A DNA stretch of 44,379 nucleotides, from the sequence record ON548431.1. One strand, given 5' to 3'. This document shows positions 9,387 to 44,379 of this stretch, piece by piece. The notes below the pieces were generated by a model. It saw only the letters and a program-made list of their open reading frames with translations. It did no database searches and was not told the origin of the DNA. This DNA is from Escherichia phage PEC9. Numbering within the stretch: position 1 is the first letter of the stretch; each line of letters starts with the position of its first letter. Both the position numbers and the translations under genes were made by a program.

Positions 9387-10151
9387 TTAGCGCGGAATGC
9401 CGCAAATCTCGTTGAGTGTTTTCACATCCAGCGCCACCGCCGTGGATTTTGGCTTGTCCGGGTATGGGATGAATTGCTCAACTTCAGGCCATGCCTTAAT
9501 CAGCTTCTTGTCAGTATTGTGCAGGTCCAGTACACCGGTAACGGTGAGTTTGAACGCATCATACTTCGCGCGCAACTCGCGACGGGCCTTGTCGTTGCGG
9601 TCCAGGCGCTTACAGAAATCATGATCCGCCGGGAAATCTGCACGGCAGCGTGGCTTATAGATCGGCAGCGCTTTCCCGTCCTCGTCCACTTCACACACTG
9701 AAGCCAGCATAACTTCTTCAAACCCCGGTACGATATCGCCGAGATCGGGAGATAGCTTATTCATGTATTTATATTCCCAGTATCCGCGATGTACGCGGTA
9801 TTGGTGGCCGTCACCGCTCAAGGATAAGGTGCGAACATTTCCGCCTGCGTTGATTTCGAAAGTGGCGTCGTAAACGCTGCCGATACCTTTCGGGCGGTCG
9901 GTGTTATAACTATATGTCGCCTTGTTGGTGTAGACGCAGACGCCGTACATCTGCGACGGGTCATCGCTGATTGCCTCGATACGCTCGCGTAGCGCGGAGA
10001 ATGTGCGAATGCCGTCCGGCATACAGTCCAGCGTGATTGCGTACGCCAGATCGCGTGAGTCCATCATGATTGTTTTGGCTTCGGTAGCGATTTCGTGGTC
10101 GCGCAGGATGTTAGCCAGGATCTGATTTTTAATATCTTTCGTCAGTCTCAT
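9387..10151 (-). CDS. Hypothetical protein (254 aa), accessory gene inside virion module
   Basis: Minus-strand ORF with GAGGA RBS; C-terminal Cys-x16-Cys-x7-His-x2-Cys cluster suggests a zinc-binding domain; no family recognised. Confidence 0.55.
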   Translation of the reverse strand: MRLTKDIKNQILANILRDHEIATEAKTIMMDSRDLAYAITLDCMPDGIRTFSALRERIEAISDDPSQMYGVCVYTNKATYSYNTDRPKGIGSVYDATFEINAGGNVRTLSLSGDGHQYRVHRGYWEYKYMNKLSPDLGDIVPGFEEVMLASVCEVDEDGKALPIYKPRCRADFPADHDFCKRLDRNDKARRELRAKYDAFKLTVTGVLDLHNTDKKLIKAWPEVEQFIPYPDKPKSTAVALDVKTLNEICGIPR

Positions 10152-15815: not shown

Positions 15816-16129
15816 TTGAGGCGGCGCGGCGCTTTTATGGCCCGCCGCCACCCTCCGAAGATTTAGCCGCGAGTTTATGGGGCGCGACACCTGAAGACGT
15901 GTGTCCTCCCGTTGCGCTGTGGCCCGACAACGCGAAGGTAGTCGCAGTCTTCACAGATTGCTCCACGCAATGGCGTACCGGATTCGGGGGCGCATACGGC
16001 ATCGACTACGGCGTACTGGAATGGCTATTTAAGATGCACGGCATCGAAAACGCGCAACGTGCGTTTAAAGATATCAAGCTAATGGAACGCGTTGCGCTGG
16101 ATGAAATGGCGCGGCAGAACCCCGCATAA
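15453..16129 (+). CDS. Tail assembly chaperone frameshift fusion (lambda GT-like), made by -1 slip near 15806-15812
   Basis: Downstream frame is open from 15806 to 16129 but has no ATG or RBS of its own (ORF track starts it at a GTG); slippery heptamer at end of the G-like gene. Confidence 0.5.
15806..15812 (+). other. Programmed -1 ribosomal frameshift slippery site A_AAA_AAC
   Basis: Zero-frame codons gaa aaa aac taa; heptamer fits the X_XXY_YYZ pattern; position matches conserved G/GT frameshift of long-tailed phages. Confidence 0.5.
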
Positions 16130-16133
16130 CGAA

Positions 16134-16450
16134 GCGGGACAGGCGGGACGTCCCGTTTTGTCCCGCCACCATTAAACTGCATATATACTCACTACCAGTG
16201 CATAAACTAAAAGCGGGACAGGGGTGCTGTCCCGATCTGTCCCGCCCCTTAAAAGTGAATAGCTAAGCGGTTTTTCTGCATAAAACAAACGGGACAAAAA
16301 ACGGGACAGACCAGGGGCGGGACAAAGCGGGACAGCACCCTGTCCCTGCCAGTGCTGCCGCGGGTTTTAGCCGATCGGGACAGGCGGGACAAAGCCCAGT
16401 CTTTCAGACTAGACGGGGGTCATTGGCCCCCCTCGTCTGAGACTGAATAA
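16134..16450. repeat. GGGACA-rich iteron-like repeat region with palindromes, ending in a 75-bp structured element
   Basis: About 14 copies of GGGACA(G/A) in both orientations; palindrome GGGACGTCCC; GGGACAG-N5-CTGTCCC units; 16290-16450 is a near-copy of 44109-44269. Confidence 0.7.
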
Positions 16451-16513: not shown

Positions 16514-19159
16514 ATGGCAGATCAGGCAGCGGGCATCACGCTCAAGGCGGACGTCGCGCAAATTAAAACGGCTAATACTGTGCTGGACACATTTGCGCAG
16601 AAATCCGAGAACACAGAACAGAAAGTAAAGAAATTAAACGACACCCTCGGCAAGTCGAAAAAGGTTACTGGCGACGCCGCTGGCGGAATGGAGAAGTTAG
16701 CGACTGAATCGCAGCGTGCCGCCGATGGCATGACGAAACAGGAGCGACTCGCCAGCCGATTAGGCATGTCTACCAAAAACCTGGGATTCGCATCGCGGAA
16801 CGCCGCATTCCAGTTGCAGGATATTGCGGTAACGCTTGAGATGGGTATGCCGGTCCACCGCGTTATGCTTCAGCAGCTACCGCAGCTTACTGGGGCGTTT
16901 GGCGGACTTGGAAACACACTGCGATATGTTGCGGGCTTTCTCGGCCCAGTAGGGATCGGCCTTTCGGCATTAACGGCGACGTTAGGCGTAGGGGTGGCAA
17001 TTACGACCCGCGCAGAGAACCAGGTGGCGGCGCTTAATAAGACGCTGGCGCTATCCGGTAATATTTCAGGCCTCACAGCTAACCAGATCCTTGTGCTGTC
17101 CGAGAACGCCGAGCGCATGGGCGGGTCATTCCGCAAGACGCGTGACACAATCCAGGCGCTGGCGGCGGCGGGTGTGAAAGCGGGTGGTGACTTCGGCGCA
17201 TTGGCTAAGGTAGTTAATGACTTTGCGAAGGTGTCCAGCCAGCCGATCGAGGATGTGGTAGCGGCGGTGGCGAAGCTGTCAACCGACCCCGTTGGCGGAC
17301 TGCGTGCGCTGGCGGATAAGTATCACGTCGTAAACGAAGCGCAGATCCAGCAGGTACAGTCGCTCGTTGATACGGGTCGTGAGACAGACGCAGTTGCGTT
17401 GGCTAACAAAACAGCCGCGGCGTCGTTCACCAGCATGACCAATGAGATCAAGGCGAACATGGGTACGCTTGAGCGGTCGATGAACGTCGTTACATCGGCA
17501 GCTAAGTCTATGTGGGATGCCATCCTGGATGTGGGCCGCGCGCAGTCCTCCAATGAGTCCGAGATGAAAGCGCGCGAATCACTACAGCGCATGACCACGG
17601 CTTACTATGCCGAGATGAAAGCGGTAAACGCTGCCGGTGGAGTGATGACCGAAGCTCAGAAAGCGCGTATTAACATGCTTTATAGCGAACTGGTCGCCCA
17701 GGAGAAAGTAGTGGCGTCGCTCACCCTTCGTAACCGTGCGGAGCGAGACAACGCCCGCGCCGCAGACGAATCCGCAAAGGCGAACGAGGAGGCTAACCGC
17801 ACCGCCCGCGACCGCGCTGCGTTCGAGAAGGAGTACGCAACTAACGCGAAGAAGCGCGCAGACGAGATAGCCCGCCTCAATTTGCTGAATAAGCGCGGCG
17901 TTATTGACGAGAAAGAGCTTGCTGAGGCGGTTAAGCAGGTAAACGAGCGTTACAAAGACCCGGCCCCGAAGAAGGCCGCGGCTGTTCGCGTGGATGCCGG
18001 TATGAAAATGCTGGAAGTCGCACGGAGCGAACTGGCCCAGCTTCGAGAATCAGGCAAACAGATCGAAGCCAACGCATCGACGCAGACCCGCACGCAACGC
18101 GCTCAAGCGGCCCTAAACAAGCTGATCGCCGACAATGAGCAGTTAATCGCTGCGAGCAAAGAAAGAGCGCTAACGGCAGCCGAAAAGCAGCAGATGGTGG
18201 AATTTGGACGCGTGAAGGAAGTGCGCGAGCAGATCGTCGAAGAAGCCAAATTGCTGGACGCGAAAGAGAAGCAGGTTAAGGCGCACGCGCAGATCGATGC
18301 CTTCGTTAAGAACCAGAACGCCGAACTAAAAGCCACCGCGGCGGGCTATGCGCTTTCCACTCGCGAAGCGGCAAACCTGCGCGAAGAATTGCAGCTAATC
18401 GACCGTCTGAAGAGGGTTGGCGCTAACGATACCGATATAGACAAGGCGGTGTCTAAGCTGCGGGAAGTGCAGGAGGCGCAGACCGGCGCTAACGCCTCGC
18501 TATGGGATGGATTCAGTCGCGGGCTTAAGGATAGCGTGGATGAGATGGGTAACGGATATACGCAGATGACGTCACTCACAAAATTCACGTTCAGCGCTAT
18601 GCAGGACACGATGAACGAGTTTTTCGAGACGGGCAAGATTAACGCGAAGGATATGGTCAAATCCATCCTGAGCGAGTTAATCAAGCTGGCTACCTCGCAG
18701 GCGTTCAAGTCGATTGTTAGCGCTTTCGGTGGTGACGGCGGCAAAAACGGATTGTTCGGCGCTATCTTCTCGGGCCTCACTAAGAATGCGGACGGCGGAG
18801 CGTACGCAGGAGGCAATCTGGCGGCCTATTCGGGGAAAGTGGTAAGCCAGCCTACCTTTTTCAGTTATGGCGTCCAGGCGTTCGCTAAGGGCGCAGGATT
18901 GATGGGTGAGGCCGGTCCCGAGGCCATCATGCCTCTGAAGCGCGGGCCGGACGGGAAACTGGGCGTTGCCGCTTCGGGTGCTGGCGGCGGTGGTATGGTC
19001 GTGACGACTAACGTTTACACGGGGACTGGTAAAACGGATACCAGTGTCAGCGGGCCGGACCCCCGTACCGCGCAGGCGTTCGGCAAGCAAATCACCGAGG
19101 CGGTGAAGGCTGAGATCGTGAAAGCGACGAAACCGGGTGGTGTACTTTACAAACGATGA
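16514..19159 (+). CDS. Tail tape measure protein
   Basis: 881 aa, Ala/Gln-rich with long predicted helices, Gly-rich C-terminus; located between chaperone and tail-tip genes. Confidence 0.8.
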   Translation: MADQAAGITLKADVAQIKTANTVLDTFAQKSENTEQKVKKLNDTLGKSKKVTGDAAGGMEKLATESQRAADGMTKQERLASRLGMSTKNLGFASRNAAFQLQDIAVTLEMGMPVHRVMLQQLPQLTGAFGGLGNTLRYVAGFLGPVGIGLSALTATLGVGVAITTRAENQVAALNKTLALSGNISGLTANQILVLSENAERMGGSFRKTRDTIQALAAAGVKAGGDFGALAKVVNDFAKVSSQPIEDVVAAVAKLSTDPVGGLRALADKYHVVNEAQIQQVQSLVDTGRETDAVALANKTAAASFTSMTNEIKANMGTLERSMNVVTSAAKSMWDAILDVGRAQSSNESEMKARESLQRMTTAYYAEMKAVNAAGGVMTEAQKARINMLYSELVAQEKVVASLTLRNRAERDNARAADESAKANEEANRTARDRAAFEKEYATNAKKRADEIARLNLLNKRGVIDEKELAEAVKQVNERYKDPAPKKAAAVRVDAGMKMLEVARSELAQLRESGKQIEANASTQTRTQRAQAALNKLIADNEQLIAASKERALTAAEKQQMVEFGRVKEVREQIVEEAKLLDAKEKQVKAHAQIDAFVKNQNAELKATAAGYALSTREAANLREELQLIDRLKRVGANDTDIDKAVSKLREVQEAQTGANASLWDGFSRGLKDSVDEMGNGYTQMTSLTKFTFSAMQDTMNEFFETGKINAKDMVKSILSELIKLATSQAFKSIVSAFGGDGGKNGLFGAIFSGLTKNADGGAYAGGNLAAYSGKVVSQPTFFSYGVQAFAKGAGLMGEAGPEAIMPLKRGPDGKLGVAASGAGGGGMVVTTNVYTGTGKTDTSVSGPDPRTAQAFGKQITEAVKAEIVKATKPGGVLYKR

Positions 19160-26590: not shown

Positions 26591-26644
26591 GGTATCATCA
26601 CCTATATTTGGTCGAGTTTTAGTATTACACCGCTCGATCAAGAA

Positions 26645-26654
26645 TGCAACCAAT
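26645..26654. promoter_or_regulatory. Recurrent motif TGCAACCAAT upstream of tail fibre gene
   Basis: Exact 10-mer 17 bp upstream of ATG 26671, in a divergent intergenic region. Confidence 0.45.
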
Positions 26655-26670
26655 TTACGAGGATTTAGCT

Positions 26671-28503
26671 ATGGCAGCGGGTACACTATCCGTAACGAAT
26701 AACAGCAAGGCGGTTGTCGGGGTAGGCACGACGTTTACCGCGTTTAAAGCCGGAGACTTCTTATCGCTGGTAGTGGGGCAAGTACCCTACACTGTTGCGA
26801 TCGCGTCCGTAGAAAGCGACACCGCGATTACGCTTGTGCTGCCGTTCGACGGACCCACGGCAACTGGCCTCGCGTGGGATGGCGTTAAGCGCGATACCAT
26901 GTCGCTGGCAACGATGGGCGTAACAGTACAGGCGCAGAAAGCGTTGCGCTTGATGATCGCGGACGAAAACAACTGGCGCGCAATCTTCGGAGACGAGGAA
27001 GAAATCGCGGTAACGCTGCCGAACGGGCAAGTTATGCAGGGTATGTCGTGGGGCTATCTGTCGCAATTGCTGAAGGAAGTTGACCCCGTTGAAATGCGCA
27101 ACCTGCAACAACAAGCCGCGGCATCTGAAGCAGCAGCGCTGGTATCGCGTAATGAGGCCGAAGGCTTCAAGAACGATACCAATACCATCAAGACGCAGAC
27201 CAACCAGATTAAGGCAGATACGCAGGCTATCCGCGACGCCACCAATACCATCAAGACGCAGACCAACAAGATTAAGGCAGATACGCAGGCCATCAAAGAC
27301 CAGACGAACCAGATCAAGACTGACACCGGCGTTATGAGGGACCAGGCCAACGCTGCGAAGACTGACGCGCAAGCTGCCAGCGCAGCCGCGCAGGGATTCC
27401 GCGATCAGGCCGAGGAGTGGGCGCAAAGCGTTAACGCGGATAACCTGCTAACAAAATCCGGCAACCTGGCAGGGCTTGCGGATAAATCGGCGTCGTGGAA
27501 GAACCTTATGCCTGCGGGGCCGCTGCGAATTGGGGCGCACCCCGTTGCGGACCTGGATGCCGCGACCCGGAAATGGACGCTGGAGCGTTTTACCAAAGGC
27601 GTGGCGGAGTCGTCGTGGACTGTCAGGAAAACCGTCACCACCACACCACAGAACGGCACTGTCGTCCGTGGCGGTGAGGTGGAATCGAGATATTCCAACC
27701 CAACATCTACGCAGTTCGCCCGTCTGTACTCAAGCTCTGTATTTGGTTCTTCTAACGCGGCTGTTGTTGAGGCAGAGGGTTCTTCCAGGCACGCTTATAA
27801 ATTCTATGAGGATGGCACAGTTGACTTCCGACAGTCAGGGAAGACCAACCCATTCCGCATGTATACAAATATTGGAACATGGAATGGCATAACGGACGCC
27901 ACGGCATCCAACTTGACAACTAACGGAATGGACAGGGTGGCCATTTCGAGCGGCTCAGATACTCTGGTGCACGGATATTCTATCGGCGGCACCAAACCTA
28001 ATGGATATCCAACAAAGGTTGGATATCACATGTATATTCCAGGCAATAATGCATTTGGTATTGCTTGCATGGTAATCGGTGGGGATAACGGAAAATTTTG
28101 CCGTTACTTTTTTGACATTGATGGTCTAATATATGGTTCGACCGATTACGGGAACTTCAGTTATATGAAAAATGGCACTTCTGACTTACGTGTAAAACAC
28201 GGCATCGCCCATGTTGGAGTTGACAAATCATACTCTAATATTAAAGGGCTGGAATTTGTAGAGTTCATTTATGATAATGACGAACAAAATCGAGTTCGGC
28301 ATGGCGTGATTGCACAGCAAGCAGAGGTTGTTGAGCCTTTATATGTCAAGACGCGCAAATATGTTGGCAATAATCCAGGAGAGATTGTGGAGCAGAAGGA
28401 ACTGGACACTACGCCGATGCTTCTGGATACCATGCATGTTGTGCAGACGTTGATGCAGAAGATCGAGGCTATGGAGGCCGAGATCGCGGCGCTGAAGAAA
28501 TGA
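26671..28503 (+). CDS. Tail fibre with predicted C-terminal intramolecular chaperone domain
   Basis: 611 aa from ATG 26671 (GAGGA RBS); internal repeats TNTIKTQTNQIKADTQAI; C-terminal region ending ...EAMEAEIAALKK resembles autocleaving chaperone domains of phage fibres. Confidence 0.65.
   Translation: MAAGTLSVTNNSKAVVGVGTTFTAFKAGDFLSLVVGQVPYTVAIASVESDTAITLVLPFDGPTATGLAWDGVKRDTMSLATMGVTVQAQKALRLMIADENNWRAIFGDEEEIAVTLPNGQVMQGMSWGYLSQLLKEVDPVEMRNLQQQAAASEAAALVSRNEAEGFKNDTNTIKTQTNQIKADTQAIRDATNTIKTQTNKIKADTQAIKDQTNQIKTDTGVMRDQANAAKTDAQAASAAAQGFRDQAEEWAQSVNADNLLTKSGNLAGLADKSASWKNLMPAGPLRIGAHPVADLDAATRKWTLERFTKGVAESSWTVRKTVTTTPQNGTVVRGGEVESRYSNPTSTQFARLYSSSVFGSSNAAVVEAEGSSRHAYKFYEDGTVDFRQSGKTNPFRMYTNIGTWNGITDATASNLTTNGMDRVAISSGSDTLVHGYSIGGTKPNGYPTKVGYHMYIPGNNAFGIACMVIGGDNGKFCRYFFDIDGLIYGSTDYGNFSYMKNGTSDLRVKHGIAHVGVDKSYSNIKGLEFVEFIYDNDEQNRVRHGVIAQQAEVVEPLYVKTRKYVGNNPGEIVEQKELDTTPMLLDTMHVVQTLMQKIEAMEAEIAALKK
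27178..27303 (+). repeat. 63-bp tandem direct repeat (2 units plus partial third) inside tail fibre gene
   Basis: Unit 27178-27240 and unit 27241-27303 differ at a few positions; partial third unit follows. Confidence 0.7.
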
Positions 28504-37391: not shown

Positions 37392-38177
37392 TTAACGGCG
37401 GCGACGTTTACGTGGTGCTTCGTCTTCGTCGTCTTCGTCCTCATCTTCATCGTCGCGCGGCTTACGACGTTTACGAGGTTTCTCATCTTCGTCGTCTTCG
37501 TCGTCATCGCGGCGCTTGGACTTTTTGGACTTGCGCGGCTTGTCGTCTTCGTCATCGTCATCACGACGTTTTGACTTTTTGGCCTTGCGCGGGCTTTCAT
37601 CTTCGTCATCGTTGTCCAGGTCTTCGTCGGAGCAAGAAGACCCGCCACCGCCGAAGGCTTCACCGTCATCACGGAAGCGTAAACCCAGCAAGCCAGCACC
37701 GAGTCCCTTGCCGTTGGTGTTGTTCCACGCCCAAATATCCAAGGACACGTTGCAATAACATCCGGAGTAGATCTCCTGGCCTTCGATCTCGTCGCCTTCT
37801 ACGGTCAGACCTTGTTCAGTCTGCTTCTCGCCGAGTGACGTTTGAATGTTTGGCTGTTTGAACGATTTGGCGTTGATGTACAACATGCCTTCGAATTCTT
37901 CGGTCACTTCATCGCGCTCGTCACCGTCGCGAACTGCGCATTCCTTAGAATCCTGTGCGTAGTGGCGGTCCATCCACTTATCGGCGTTCTTCTCGGATTT
38001 CAGCTTGTCGGTGAGCACTGCGCGCGCTGCCGCTTCCACTTTGTCCACCTGCGGATCTTCTTTATCAAGAAGAATCACTGCACGGTATGCCGGTTTTTGA
38101 CCATCCTGTTTAGGGGTATCGCGTTCCCAAATTTTAAGGAAACATACGCGCACATTTTTCAGGTTGACTTTAGCCAT
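37392..38177 (-). CDS. SSB-like protein with alternating acidic/basic repetitive C-terminal tail
   Basis: 261 aa from ATG 38177 (GAGGA RBS); C-terminal about 80 aa made of repeats such as DEDE-KPRKSKKSKRR-DDDEDDEDE; co-located with Cas4-like nuclease; SSB role inferred. Confidence 0.5.
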   Translation of the reverse strand: MAKVNLKNVRVCFLKIWERDTPKQDGQKPAYRAVILLDKEDPQVDKVEAAARAVLTDKLKSEKNADKWMDRHYAQDSKECAVRDGDERDEVTEEFEGMLYINAKSFKQPNIQTSLGEKQTEQGLTVEGDEIEGQEIYSGCYCNVSLDIWAWNNTNGKGLGAGLLGLRFRDDGEAFGGGGSSCSDEDLDNDDEDESPRKAKKSKRRDDDDEDDKPRKSKKSKRRDDDEDDEDEKPRKRRKPRDDEDEDEDDEDEAPRKRRRR

Positions 38178-40551: not shown

Positions 40552-40995
40552 TTAGTCCTCCAGTTCGAAATAGGTTTCGACGATTTCTTTCAATTCGGTG
40601 TGGAAGTCCGCCACGTCGTCGTCTTCCAGTTTAGCGATTGATTTGATCTCGAACGATTCCAGCAGGTCGTCGAATTCGTCGTTCGCATCGTCATCATCAC
40701 CGCCTGCGATAATCGCGGCATACTGTTTGATTTCGTCGCGCATCTCTGCCAGCGGGTCGGCATCTTTCTTACCTTTGCCTTTCGCTGGTGCTTTTTTACC
40801 CTTCGCCGTGGCTTTTTTACCTTTCGCCGGTGCTTCGTCTTCAGCGTCGTCATCTTCTACGACTTCTTTTTTGGCCTTAGCTGGCTTTTTATCTTCCTGC
40901 TTACCAACGGCAGCGCCGACGGTTTCATAATGCTTAGCGATGGTTTCCAGTGCTACTACGCCGCGAGTGATCAGGTTTACGATTTGCTCAAACAT
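40552..40995 (-). CDS. Highly acidic protein with Lys-rich AKGKK repeats; first gene of minus-strand early block
   Basis: 147 aa from ATG 40995 (GGAGAT RBS); KGKK repeats followed by Asp/Glu-rich C-terminal half; ORF-track N-terminal extension rejected. Confidence 0.5.
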   Translation of the reverse strand: MFEQIVNLITRGVVALETIAKHYETVGAAVGKQEDKKPAKAKKEVVEDDDAEDEAPAKGKKATAKGKKAPAKGKGKKDADPLAEMRDEIKQYAAIIAGGDDDDANDEFDDLLESFEIKSIAKLEDDDVADFHTELKEIVETYFELED

Positions 40996-41396: not shown

Positions 41397-41726
41397 ATGA
41401 ATATCAAAGAAGCAATTGAAGTGTTATCTAATGCAATCCGCGGCGAAGCGGGTAAATCCTGGTATTACACAAATGCGGTGGATACTCTGTTATTTGAAGT
41501 GTCCAGATTATCGCGTGCTGAGAAGGAGCTTACCGCGAAGCTGGAATTACTCAACGGCACGGCAGCAAGCAAGCTGCAAAAGCACAATGAAGAAATGGAA
41601 GAATACAAAAAACAGGTTATCCGTTTGCGCGCCGAGGGCAAATCCTGGGCAATGATCGCTGAGTTGACAGGAATTAATCAGAGCACCGTGCGCTCCTGGG
41701 TACGCAATAATAAAACTTCGAAGTAA
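41397..41726 (+). CDS. Small HTH DNA-binding protein (putative transcription regulator)
   Basis: 109 aa; C-terminal helix-turn-helix-like segment (SWAMIAELTGINQSTVRSWV); AGGAG RBS. Confidence 0.5.
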   Translation: MNIKEAIEVLSNAIRGEAGKSWYYTNAVDTLLFEVSRLSRAEKELTAKLELLNGTAASKLQKHNEEMEEYKKQVIRLRAEGKSWAMIAELTGINQSTVRSWVRNNKTSK

Positions 41727-41736
41727 GGCAACGGCA

Positions 41737-44001
41737 ATGAGCTTAATTAAATTCGCGGTAACACGACCCGCTAAAAAAGGCGAAAAAGCCAGGGCGGAAA
41801 ACTTCCAGATGACCACCGATGAATTTTTCGAATTTATCAATGACGCGAAAGAAATCTCCTCGGTGCATATCAACAAGACGGAAGATAAAGCCGAGTATGC
41901 GCGCCGCAAGCGTAAGGCCGATGGCATCGTAGCTTATACCAGTGACGGCCTGCGCCGCAAGACCAGTGCGGTGGACCGCTCGATCCTGTTCTTCGATATT
42001 GACCGCACCGACACTCGCACCCTACGCCGCTGCCGTAAGGCTTTCATCGACGCGGGGCTGGAGCACGTATTCCACACAACCACCGGCGACCGCCACCCGC
42101 TGAAAGGCGGCACGCGTTGCGCCCGTTTCCTGGTACTCACTGACAAGCCTGTACCGGCGGAAGACCTGGGCCGTGTCCAGTATGCGCTATTACACCAACT
42201 TGGCCTGTCAGATGTGGACTTCGACGATTGCACGAAAGACACAAACCGCCTGATGTACCTGCCGCACCAGCAGTCTGTCATTAAGTGTCACTACGGCAAA
42301 CGTGCCCGCGTCCGTCGTCTGCTCCGCCTGGCGGATACGCTTGGCGTGGAGAAGGAAGAAGTACGCCGCGAGCTTACCCAGGGCGACGACGCAGTGGCAG
42401 ACGGCATTCTGGACTGGTGCTTCCAGGCAGGATTCGAGGAGTTATCTTCCGGTCGCGGTTATGAAGTGCCGTGCCCGAACGAACATCTGCACAGCGGCGA
42501 AGGGTCGACGGCTATCATGGTCAAGGATGGCGAGATCCGTTTCAAGTGTATGCACACCGGCAACGAGTGTTGCTCGGAGCTAAATAGACACCAGCACCTG
42601 GCGCTACGTCTTATCGGGATACCGGACCACCTGAACGTCGAGCCGCACAACATGTCACGTAAGCAAATTGCCGCCATCCTCCCAGGGCTGGACGACGAGG
42701 AAGTCGAATCCTTATATGAACATATTGTTGATGCGGTTGGCGACGGCGAAGAATACGGCGTGTGCACCGATGCGGATCTGGATAACGAGCCGGTCGCACT
42801 ATTCAGTAAGCACGACCCGATCATCGAAGGTCTGATTAACTTCAAATCGACCTGGTATATGGCTGGCGAGTCGAACATCGGCAAGTCCTTCTATGTGCTG
42901 GGGCAGATGGGCGCGGTTGCCGCGGGTATCCCGTTTGGCGGTGCGAAGGTCGTCCAGTCTCATTGCTTCTATTTCGATGCGGAAGGTGGTGAAGCCTCTA
43001 ACCAGCGCAAAGAAGCATTGCAGATTAAATACGAGCACGACCTGGACAAGCTGCACATTATCGACCTGCAGTCTCGCGGCTGGGATATCACCAGCAAGTC
43101 CGGTTTGCGCGAAGTTATCAGCTTTATCAACCGCACCGCTAACGGCGAACCTGTTGGCCTGGTGGCGTTCGACTCACTCAACCAGACTGTTGCGCTGCGG
43201 TCCGCCGATGCTAAACCGTTTGACGAGAACAACGCCAGCGATATGGGTGAAGTAGTCAAAGCGCTGAAAGCCATTGCGGAAAACACGGGGGGCAGTGCGG
43301 GCGTCATCCACCACCCGGCGAAGGGTGCAAACGGCAGCAGAACCCCACGCGGATCCGGCGCACTGCATGGCGCTGTCGATTCCGCTTTCTTCCTGGAACA
43401 GCCGGACGACAACCAACCAGGCCAATTGAACCTGTATCACGAAAAATCACGTAACGGTATCAAGCAAGCGCCGCGTGGCTTCGTCCTGCTCAAGTGCAAG
43501 GTGAAGGTGGATCTCCGCAAGTCAGAAGCGTTCGAGGCGCACCAGTCCACCAGCACCGGTCCGGACTTCGGAGACGTAGTTGCCGGTTGGGACGTCAAAC
43601 CAATTGCGTCCACCCCGCGCGACGAGACTTTATACCTCGTACCGGTCGCCCTGGCACCGTTCGCTATAGAACAGGCGAAGGCCGCAGGAAAAGCCGCAGT
43701 TAAGGAAGAGAACACCGCCGGACCGCGCACCGAAAAAGAAAAGGTACTTTACGCGGCCCTGGAAAAACTGATGGAAGATAACCCGGACCATACTGGTTTC
43801 AGTAAATCGGCAATTGTCCGCCAGGCTGGACTCGCGAAGGGTGGCACTTCGACGAAGGCAATAGACGATATGGTCGAGCGCGGCGTGATTGGTTTCTATA
43901 CAGACCCGCACACCGGGGCCATATATGGGTCATCGAATTTAGTCATTAAATCGGATATCCCCATTACACTTTCTGCGACCGATGACGACCTGAAAGATTA
44001 A
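41737..44001 (+). CDS. Primase-helicase (N-terminal primase-like domain, central P-loop ATPase, C-terminal putative DNA-binding domain)
   Basis: 754 aa; acidic motif FFDIDRTD, Cys/His cluster (CPNEHLHSGEG ... FKCMHTGNEC), Walker A GESNIGKS, Walker B-like LVAFDSL; C-terminal domain assignment is a guess. Confidence 0.7.
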   Translation: MSLIKFAVTRPAKKGEKARAENFQMTTDEFFEFINDAKEISSVHINKTEDKAEYARRKRKADGIVAYTSDGLRRKTSAVDRSILFFDIDRTDTRTLRRCRKAFIDAGLEHVFHTTTGDRHPLKGGTRCARFLVLTDKPVPAEDLGRVQYALLHQLGLSDVDFDDCTKDTNRLMYLPHQQSVIKCHYGKRARVRRLLRLADTLGVEKEEVRRELTQGDDAVADGILDWCFQAGFEELSSGRGYEVPCPNEHLHSGEGSTAIMVKDGEIRFKCMHTGNECCSELNRHQHLALRLIGIPDHLNVEPHNMSRKQIAAILPGLDDEEVESLYEHIVDAVGDGEEYGVCTDADLDNEPVALFSKHDPIIEGLINFKSTWYMAGESNIGKSFYVLGQMGAVAAGIPFGGAKVVQSHCFYFDAEGGEASNQRKEALQIKYEHDLDKLHIIDLQSRGWDITSKSGLREVISFINRTANGEPVGLVAFDSLNQTVALRSADAKPFDENNASDMGEVVKALKAIAENTGGSAGVIHHPAKGANGSRTPRGSGALHGAVDSAFFLEQPDDNQPGQLNLYHEKSRNGIKQAPRGFVLLKCKVKVDLRKSEAFEAHQSTSTGPDFGDVVAGWDVKPIASTPRDETLYLVPVALAPFAIEQAKAAGKAAVKEENTAGPRTEKEKVLYAALEKLMEDNPDHTGFSKSAIVRQAGLAKGGTSTKAIDDMVERGVIGFYTDPHTGAIYGSSNLVIKSDIPITLSATDDDLKD

Positions 44002-44011
44002 ATTTTGCGCG

Positions 44012-44056
44012 CATTGGTTGCCATTTTGAGTGTTTTTAGCCGGTCGCATTGGTTGC
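44012..44056. promoter_or_regulatory. Two direct copies of CATTGGTTGC just downstream of primase stop
   Basis: Read at 44012-44021 and 44047-44056; reverse-complement copy GCAACCAATG at 44329-44338 on the far side of the repeat. Confidence 0.45.
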
Positions 44057-44108
44057 CGTGTAGTGTGAATATAATGCATAGTTATGCAATAAAACTGCAT
44101 AAAGTAAG

Positions 44109-44269
44109 CGGGACAAAAAGCGGGACAGACCAGGGGCGGGACAAAGCGGGACAGCACCCCTGTCCCGCCCCGGATGACGCGGCCTGGCGGGGAGCGGGAC
44201 AGGCGGGACAAAGCCCAGTCTTTCAGACTAGACGGGGGTCATTGGCCCCCCTCGTCTGAGACTGAATAA
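44109..44269. repeat. Second copy of the ~160-bp GGGACA-rich structured repeat (last 75 bp identical to 16376-16450)
   Basis: Left part 44109-44165 about 90 percent identical to 16290-16346; 29-bp divergent middle; right part 44195-44269 identical to 16376-16450. Confidence 0.75.
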
Positions 44270-44328
44270 AATCCGGGATTGCATAATACACGGCAGCACA
44301 TTGGAAATCGCGGTCGTCGCTGAACTAG

Positions 44329-44338
44329 GCAACCAATG
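44329..44338. promoter_or_regulatory. Recurrent motif GCAACCAATG, inverted relative to 44012-44056
   Basis: Read directly in the terminal non-coding region. Confidence 0.4.
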
Positions 44339-44379
44339 CGAGATGCAGAACGGGGTGTGAAAAATGCAGTTTGCAGTCA

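Follow-up and report, generated by a model that had tools for sequence, protein, structure and literature searches.

The 44,379-nt genome of Escherichia phage PEC9 (ON548431.1; this whole stretch is referred to here as the window) carries two related noncoding modules, one lying just past the gene for its primase-helicase (locus B) and the other among its tail genes (locus A). Comparison with related phages makes it rather probable that both loci are cis-acting replication-origin or initiator sites, composed of GCGGGACA iterons that would be read by a winged-helix domain of the primase-helicase itself. The pairing of an iteron origin with an initiator winged helix is a known arrangement, and its occurrence here in a new phage group seems plausible. 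By megablast, the window belongs to the genus Dhillonvirus, together with the E. coli siphoviruses HK578, SSL-2009a and SO-1, and 158 phage records have matches to both query regions. The window represents a full, circularly permuted genome, with a 500-nt segment joining its end to its start aligning unbroken to phage LM40P1; since this junction is contiguous, the intergenic region of locus B comprises positions 44002-44379 plus 1-101. Both repeats are already annotated in the GenBank record of SO-1, as 'region A' and 'region B', and their mutual similarity and a 'possible' function are noted there. A literature search yielded no discussion of them for Dhillonvirus or related phages.

The original prediction placed a repeat next to the primase-helicase gene, about 100 bp past its stop codon, and this description is accurate. 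The repeat family has two copies of 195 nt, at 16256-16450 and 44075-44269, which share 84% identity and are 100% identical over their final 76 nt. The window holds 22 copies of the heptamer CGGGACA where 6.5 +/- 2.2 are expected, a count reached in none of 100 shuffles, and 18 of these copies fall within 16134-16391 and 44108-44210, which amount to about 0.8% of the genome. At both loci the module presents the same elements in the same order: first the AT-rich box, then the array of GCGGGACA iterons and last a 49-nt hairpin that is conserved. The AT-rich segment of locus B (44060-44107; about 70% A+T versus 46% for the genome) is found on the 5' side of the array only, and harbors both an inverted repeat, TTATGCA-N7-TGCATAA (44082-44102), and a conserved box, GAATA(G)TTATGCA, the columns of which are invariant in 20 distinct locus-B sequences. 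As far as its composition and conservation indicate, this segment is a candidate DNA-unwinding element or site for a conserved factor. The array that follows (44108-44210, + strand) contains seven GCGGGACA copies, of which one (44161-44168) is inverted and the other six are direct, arranged as four direct copies, the inverted one, a 33-nt step and two further direct copies, with start-to-start steps of 12, 16, 10, 15, 33 and 9 nt. Its first iteron, at 44108, lies 107 nt past the primase-helicase stop, and the imperfect hairpin (44216-44264, + strand) starts 5 nt past the last one. The hairpin is laid out as CAGTC..TCAGAC..GGGGG-loop-CCCCC..GTCTGA..GACTG and folds into an imperfect stem of about 20 bp with internal loops. 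Locus A holds 12 copies at no more than one mismatch from GCGGGACA (16134-16391, + strand), distributed in four groups with AT-rich stretches between them, and a hairpin (16397-16445, + strand) identical to that of locus B; it exceeds locus B in iterons (12 versus 7) and in inverted pairs. It is flanked by a tail-chaperone gene, ending at 16129, and the tape-measure gene, starting at 16514, and the genes upstream of it match the Pfam families DUF1799 and Phage_TAC_4 (tail-assembly chaperone). On the circular map, the two loci are 16.5 and 27.8 kb apart.

Across the 158 phage records, the noncoding module is at least as conserved as the coding DNA that flanks it. Alignments of the 20 distinct locus-B and 18 distinct locus-A sequences of the genus show little or no change in the iterons, the AT-rich box or the stems of the hairpin, which surpass in conservation the end of the primase-helicase gene next to them, and no variation at all in the iteron columns of locus B. 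The hairpin loop is variable while the stems hold: 92% of the proposed pairs, counted as cells, are kept over 19 distinct hairpin variants. Compensatory changes are few, the clearest being the double change from TCAGAC/GTCTGA to AGAGAC/GTCTCT seen in the relative L013. The loops are often the same within one genome and different between genomes, a sign of concerted evolution. In phage SM_S22 (L005, 39479-39684) the iteron block of locus B is tandemly duplicated and holds 12 GGGACA copies, not 6, which shows the copy-number plasticity of the array.

The gene adjacent to locus B (41737-44001, + strand) codes for a protein of 754 aa that matches phrog_3228, 'replicative helicase-primase', across its full length. 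Its domains are an AEP PrimPol (residues 1 to about 205), a Cys/His cluster resembling zinc ligands, an AAA_25 RecA-type helicase (357-531) and a C-terminal winged helix. The AAA_25 core, which is RepA/DnaB-like, was identified through Pfam (E 2e-19), and a structural model of the N-terminal 345 residues (predicted local distance difference test score, pLDDT, 86) has as its best match in the PDB the AEP domain of the cyanophage S-2L PrimPol (6zp9_A, E 1e-5), with polymerase domains of Prim-PolC and LigD next in rank. Compared by sequence with solved structures, the protein shows no similarity beyond a weak match to 1g8y (E 0.5). A winged helix had been anticipated within residues 620-754, and the model of this region, built on a 50-sequence alignment, does predict one: a helix-strand-helix-helix-strand-wing-strand succession at residues 666-737 (43732-43947, + strand), with pLDDT values of 81-92. 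The leading Foldseek matches of this C-terminal domain (CTD) are all winged-helix DNA binders, comprising the MarR family, a MepR-DNA complex, histone H1, LexA and origin recognition complex subunits, and we propose it as the putative iteron reader. The AEP primase domain (41737-42771) is mosaic within the genus, with 58-99% identity between clusters, and the helicase and the CTD are highly conserved, a pattern that suggests recombination at the level of domains. A search of a plasmid database with the primase-helicase brought up nothing informative, its matches being a remote RepA and a copy of 37% identity located on a 44-kb 'plasmid'.

The case for the primase-helicase as the reader of the iterons draws on other lineages. 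The contigs compared encode primase-helicase homologues at 46-70% identity and share the same gene order, consisting of a helix-turn-helix (HTH) gene, the primase-helicase gene and a noncoding gap of 400-650 nt. This gap holds iterons in every relative examined, Cornellvirus included, and the iterons themselves differ, with at least seven types across lineages. The GCGGGACA iteron of the window (type T1) is also that of L006/L018 (P0011); L011 (P0009) and L012 (P0007) carry GTGTGGCA (T2), L013 (P0008) carries GTGTGCCA (T3) and L107 (P0012) carries GGTGCCA (T4), and further types are found in L007 and L106 (GGGAT(C/A) / AAGGGA), in L009 and L010 (TTGCGAGT) and in the Cornellvirus VSiP (L108; GGGGGAGA). 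Types T1 to T3 keep a common layout, made up of the AT-rich box, an array with one inverted copy, two iterons and the hairpin. A constant layout with changed iterons is, on the comparative sequence evidence, the signature of a binding site that co-evolves with its reader. The AT-rich box GAATAGTTATGCA, contained in TTATGCA-N7-TGCATAA just 5' of the iterons (44076-44102 in the window), is likewise kept across iteron types, and recurs in L061 and L018 and, with other iterons, in L011, L107 and the Cornellvirus L108 (37162-37195); a conserved factor may act at this box, or unwinding or priming may start there. A metagenome scan for the T2 or T3 iteron together with the hairpin returned four chance matches in unrelated DNA.

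The CTD changes along with the iteron. From its sequence alone, and before the corresponding DNA was inspected, P0007 was predicted to share the iteron of P0009 and P0008 to have a different one, and both predictions were borne out. No domain of the protein diverges more between iteron types than the CTD, which has 50-57% identity versus 65-83% for the primase and helicase domains; among members of the genus its identity remains at 95-99%, even when that of the N-terminal domain is down to 58%. The P0011 lineage is of particular value here. The N-terminal domain of this T1 protein is 79% identical to T2 versus 69% to the window, and nearly all of the remaining shared proteins of the lineage are also nearer to T2 than to the window; its CTD, on the other hand, is about 60-62% identical to the window versus 52-56% to T2. 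Among the proteins of the replication and early regions, no further shared protein groups by iteron type. Of the original prediction, which has the C-terminal domain of the primase recognize the repeats, this much is supported: the domain changes with the iteron type, and would be the reader.

That the two repeat loci form a pair, another element of the original prediction, is supported in every lineage in which both are readable, since they invariably share the iteron type. In the relatives, locus A was reached through tape-measure homologues on contigs. T1 lineages have GCGGGACA at both positions, in many genomes and in the P0011-like lineage (L061 with L018); in T2, a single contig (L103 with L011) carries GTGTGGCA iterons and a hairpin just upstream of the tape-measure gene; and lineages of the GGGAT type show their own iteron at both positions (L104 with L007, and L105 with L106). 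As far as sequence can tell, loci A and B are therefore one system. In the Cornellvirus VSiP, a member of the group with about 44% identity in the primase-helicase, iterons are present only past the primase-helicase gene, and there is no gap before the tape-measure gene; in the remoter relative Jersey (32% identity over the helicase part) neither gap is present. Because Cornellvirus has the gene-adjacent cluster only, this distribution suggests that locus B is ancestral or primary and that locus A, in the tail operon, is a later copy. The 27.6-kb T2 contig (Logan ERR11172925_9173; L011 at its end, L103 at its start) has the same GTGTGGCA repeat at both of its ends, the A/B duplicate being the point at which assembly broke off. 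Such repeats can leave phage assemblies truncated or wrongly circularized. In the window, too, the duplicate of 195 nt is of a kind that disrupts short-read assemblies.

Taken together, these results are consistent with a scheme in which the C-terminal winged helix of the phage's own primase-helicase would dock on the iterons. The union of an AEP primase, a RecA-type helicase and a winged helix in one enzyme would make it a self-loading initiator. Locus B would most likely be the primary origin, at which the iteron-bound enzyme would melt the AT-rich box, load itself and prime synthesis. Locus A would be a secondary site for the same protein, acting as a second origin, as a cis enhancer comparable to crr of P4, or as a fork barrier that triggers the switch from theta to sigma replication, as might be the case for oriR of SPP1. 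The hairpin next to the last pair of iterons may signal priming or loading on the single strand; its likening to a single-strand initiation (ssi) signal of the RSF1010 kind is a conjecture by analogy. Binding, melting and origin firing, and likewise the roles of locus A and of the hairpin, are what we infer from these comparisons.

Several observations weigh against the proposal that the primase-helicase reads GCGGGACA at two origin sites. The Foldseek E-values of the CTD are weak (3e-3 at best), and winged helices are generic folds. The covariation between CTD and iteron is moderate and comes from few lineages, in which all sequences partly co-vary with phylogeny, and the screen for alternative readers was confined to the replication and early regions. 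The CTD of P0011 (T1) is as near to that of P0012 (T4), at 62-64% identity, as it is to that of the window, at 60-62%. Overall CTD identity fails to separate T1 from T4, and specificity would therefore rest on few residues, for which the T1-specific Thr of the 'KGGT' segment that precedes helix 3 and Ser of the 'SNLVI' segment in the wing are candidates. GC skew turns at about 28 kb and about 41 kb, matching the switches in gene orientation, so that it tracks the direction of transcription and yields no independent origin signal. The relaxed DnaA-box pattern TTWTNCACA has a single match in the genome, which does fall within the locus B intergenic region (44356-44364, - strand), but it is absent from four relatives and was discarded as probably due to chance. 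A literature search on Dhillonvirus replication found no paper. Finally, both loci are sense-oriented within the rightward transcription unit, and folding of the hairpin involves U-G wobbles on the sense strand; the two features are also compatible with a role at the RNA level.

Within the proposal itself, the function of locus A admits a different reading, which we entertain as a possibility and hold only tentatively: locus A would be bound by the primase-helicase and yet serve as a fork barrier or recombination trigger in the passage from theta to concatemer synthesis. The precedent is the layout of the Bacillus phage SPP1, in which gp38 binds both oriL and oriR, the latter situated in an intergenic stretch that breaks up the late genes, and in which oriR has been proposed to stall forks and thereby trigger concatemer synthesis (PMC6316719). 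The layouts match: SPP1 is also a siphovirus of about 44 kb that has two loci with repeats and AT-rich DNA, one initiator, and one of the loci at the initiator gene (PMC6316719). Its second locus, about 13 kb away on the circle, is placed in a gap between late structural genes, just as locus A interrupts the tail genes. The headful-type genome of the present phage, with its second cluster in a late-gene gap, accords with such a reading, as do the surplus of iterons and inverted pairs at locus A, the phage-encoded annealing module identified through Pfam (a PD-(D/E)XK exonuclease and an Enc34/gp2.5-like SSB, a protein that binds single-stranded DNA) and the lack of locus A in Cornellvirus, which makes it an add-on. 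Against it, locus A retains the full module in the order of locus B, as a working origin would, and the sequence offers nothing to tell a barrier from an origin. There are also differences between the two systems, for gp38 is a separate protein that needs the loader gp39, the DnaB-type helicase gp40 and the host primase, whereas the enzyme of this phage is predicted to be all-in-one, and oriL resides inside gene 38 whereas locus B lies past the primase-helicase gene.

An alternative that dispenses with replication, and which we judge unlikely, is that the module works in transcription or at the RNA level, the hairpin being an mRNA 3' end, a stabilizer or an RNase III-type site and the iterons operators or roadblocks that set the balance between early and late expression and among tail genes. 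Both copies do lie in the + gene orientation and at module boundaries, between primase and late operon in one case and between chaperone and tape measure in the other, and a long, imperfect stem of about 20 bp with internal loops and sense-strand U-G pairs would fit such a role. In addition, promoter- or operator-type motifs occur on both sides of locus B. Two copies of ATTGGTTGCC on the + strand (44013-44021 and 44048-44056), with ATTGGTTGC at 44013 and 44048, precede the array; an inverted copy, GCAACCAAT, follows it (44329-44337, - strand); and the intergenic region ends at a promoter-like site of the downstream operon (40-73, + strand; TTGCAT-N17-TAGATT), in which ATTGGTTGC overlies the -35 element. 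The original prediction had taken the GCAACCAAT-type motifs for inverted flanks of the repeat. They do stand at 44013, 44048 and 44329, but the genome holds the ATTGGTTGC(A) motif 13 times (40, 605, 10534, 26646, 29726/29737, 31640, 31657, 34614, 41199, 44013, 44048 and 44329), in copies that are often paired and that make up, or overlap with, the -35 element (TTGCAT) of promoters resembling those of sigma70. Given this genome-wide occurrence at promoters, the motif is no origin-specific boundary of the repeat.

The ATTGGTTGC copies probably serve a phage regulator as its set of operators at early promoters, and their probable reader is a 109-aa protein (41397-41726, + strand) assigned by Pfam as HTH_23 and sigma70-region-4-like. 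In alignments, the HTH of this protein shows no change among the T1, T2 and T3 lineages, a constancy that matches that of the ATTGGTTGC motif, and relatives that have an HTH_3 protein at that position present GTTGGCAGC or GTTGGCCGC as promoter motif instead. The same protein was considered as reader of the iterons and rejected: its recognition helix remains constant while the iterons switch, and it is therefore excluded from that role, which also tells against an operator function of the iterons with this protein as regulator. An RNA-level or transcriptional function is further disfavored by the prediction of neither a + strand sigma70-like promoter nor an intrinsic terminator in either locus, by the lack of a U-tract after the hairpin (the minus-strand terminator calls at the loci are the inverted repeats of the iterons) and by Rfam, which gave no hit in the whole window at the gathering threshold and, at E<=1 in 43950-44379, only chance-level ones (E 0.27 and 0.52). 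It also leaves unexplained both the tracking of the CTD by the iterons and the gene-adjacent cluster found even in Cornellvirus, while a role in RNA may belong to the hairpin alone, beside an origin. In L061 (IMGVR_UViG_3300045988_050407, of a 68%-identity lineage), a reverse-strand gene with ATTGGTTGC promoter motifs of its own has been inserted at 2700-2900, where it separates the tail chaperone genes from locus A.

It is very improbable that the module lacks a function of its own and is a selfish or neutral dispersed repeat, akin to a miniature inverted-repeat transposable element (MITE), or a recombination hotspot. Two copies per genome, the signs of concerted evolution in the hairpin loops and the tandem duplication of the iteron block in SM_S22 would be in keeping with it, but the same two positions are filled in 158 of 158 records and in relatives down to about 46% primase identity, neither terminal inverted repeats nor target duplications were seen, conservation is above that of neighboring coding DNA, and the complete replacement of iterons within a preserved architecture implies selection by a reader protein. 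Scarcely credible, in turn, is the notion of a CsrB-like protein-sponge RNA or of a packaging (pac) signal: GCGGGACA does contain GGA, with copies arrayed as in sponge RNAs, and the phage has a P22/Sf6-type small terminase, but a CsrA-type sponge was rejected on the evidence of the sister-lineage motifs GTGTGGCA, GTGTGCCA and TTGCGAGT, which are without GGA, pac sites are single, and the small terminase fails to sort with the iteron type, its identity being 55% to that of the T1 lineage L006 and 59% to that of the T3 lineage L013.

Reading of the iterons by the primase-helicase finds parallels in several well-known replicons. The alpha protein of P4 combines a primase, a helicase and a C-terminal winged-helix DNA-binding domain in one polypeptide, and the octamer iterons of P4 are located at two loci, ori and crr, about 4.5 kb apart, the second of which is needed in cis. 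The phage studied here has the same predicted order of domains and octamer iterons at two separate loci, but the helicase of alpha belongs to SF3 and its primase to another type, and both P4 loci are in the replication region, while the second locus is here in the tail operon. The oriV of RSF1010 and other IncQ plasmids consists of 20-bp iterons, an AT-rich region and hairpin-forming ssi sites, and distributes binding, helicase and primase activities over three proteins, RepC, RepA and RepB'. Iterons, AT-rich DNA and a hairpin, putatively of the ssi kind, occur in both, as does the AAA_25-type fold of RepA (1g8y, E 0.5). In the S. aureus pathogenicity islands (SaPIs), Rep (PriRep, which is primase-fused in SaPI5) is a self-loading helicase with a C-terminal winged helix, and the origin consists of 6-12 iterons of 5-6 bp directly 3' of rep, in both orientations and flanking an AT-rich center, with an iteron sequence specific to each element (PMC9371898). 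Iterons beside the initiator gene, an AT-rich segment and a predicted C-terminal winged helix are found here too. The helicase of SaPI Rep is, however, of the SF3/AAA+ class, against the RecA-type AAA_25 (RSF1010 RepA / DnaB-like) of this phage, and the AT-rich segment, central in SaPIs, is here one-sided and accompanied by a conserved hairpin and a second, distant copy of the module. What the present analysis adds is the predicted winged helix, the series of iteron types with its joint switch at both loci, the exclusion of the HTH protein as reader and the reassignment of GCAACCAAT to promoters.

Some further features of the genome were noted along the way. The record of PEC14 (OP046317.1 / NC_073051.1) is 100% identical to the window in both segments tested and has 37,268 bp versus 44,379 bp, so that about 7 kb may be missing from the deposit. 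A protein with nucleotide-modification-associated domain 5 (Nmad5; E 9e-59) is encoded by a reverse-strand gene (9387-10151) inside the structural module, and relatives carry annotated Dam- and Dcm-like methyltransferases; DNA modification may matter for the phage's evasion of defenses. The lateral tail-fiber gene (26644-28503; 619 aa) contains a 63-nt tandem repeat of about three copies (63-89% identity) at 27173-27340. Runs of TCGTCTTCGTC-type repeats were found at 37402-37617 and 40676-40896, both in - strand genes, namely that of the Enc34/gp2.5-like SSB, in its C-terminal part, and a 223-aa early gene, and would encode Asp/Glu-rich repeats when read on the coding (-) strand.

Dhillonviruses, which are common phages of E. 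coli, feature in the BASEL collection and in papers on phage-therapy isolates, and a defined origin together with its reader would aid their engineering and the construction of origin-based plasmids. One may go further and envisage a one-protein initiator with iteron docking and a hairpin that signals priming or loading, the module of which was duplicated into the tail operon, coupling replication or programmed fork arrest to late-gene dosage or to the concatemer switch, and in which the turnover of iterons and winged helices would create 'incompatibility groups' and so shield co-infecting phages from one another; we regard this larger picture as speculative and doubtful as a whole. The two loci would provide a Gram-negative counterpart to the two-origin layout of SPP1, with a role of the second site that is directly testable, and the matched pairs of iteron and winged helix, of at least seven types, would constitute a natural series in which to follow the evolution of DNA-binding specificity.

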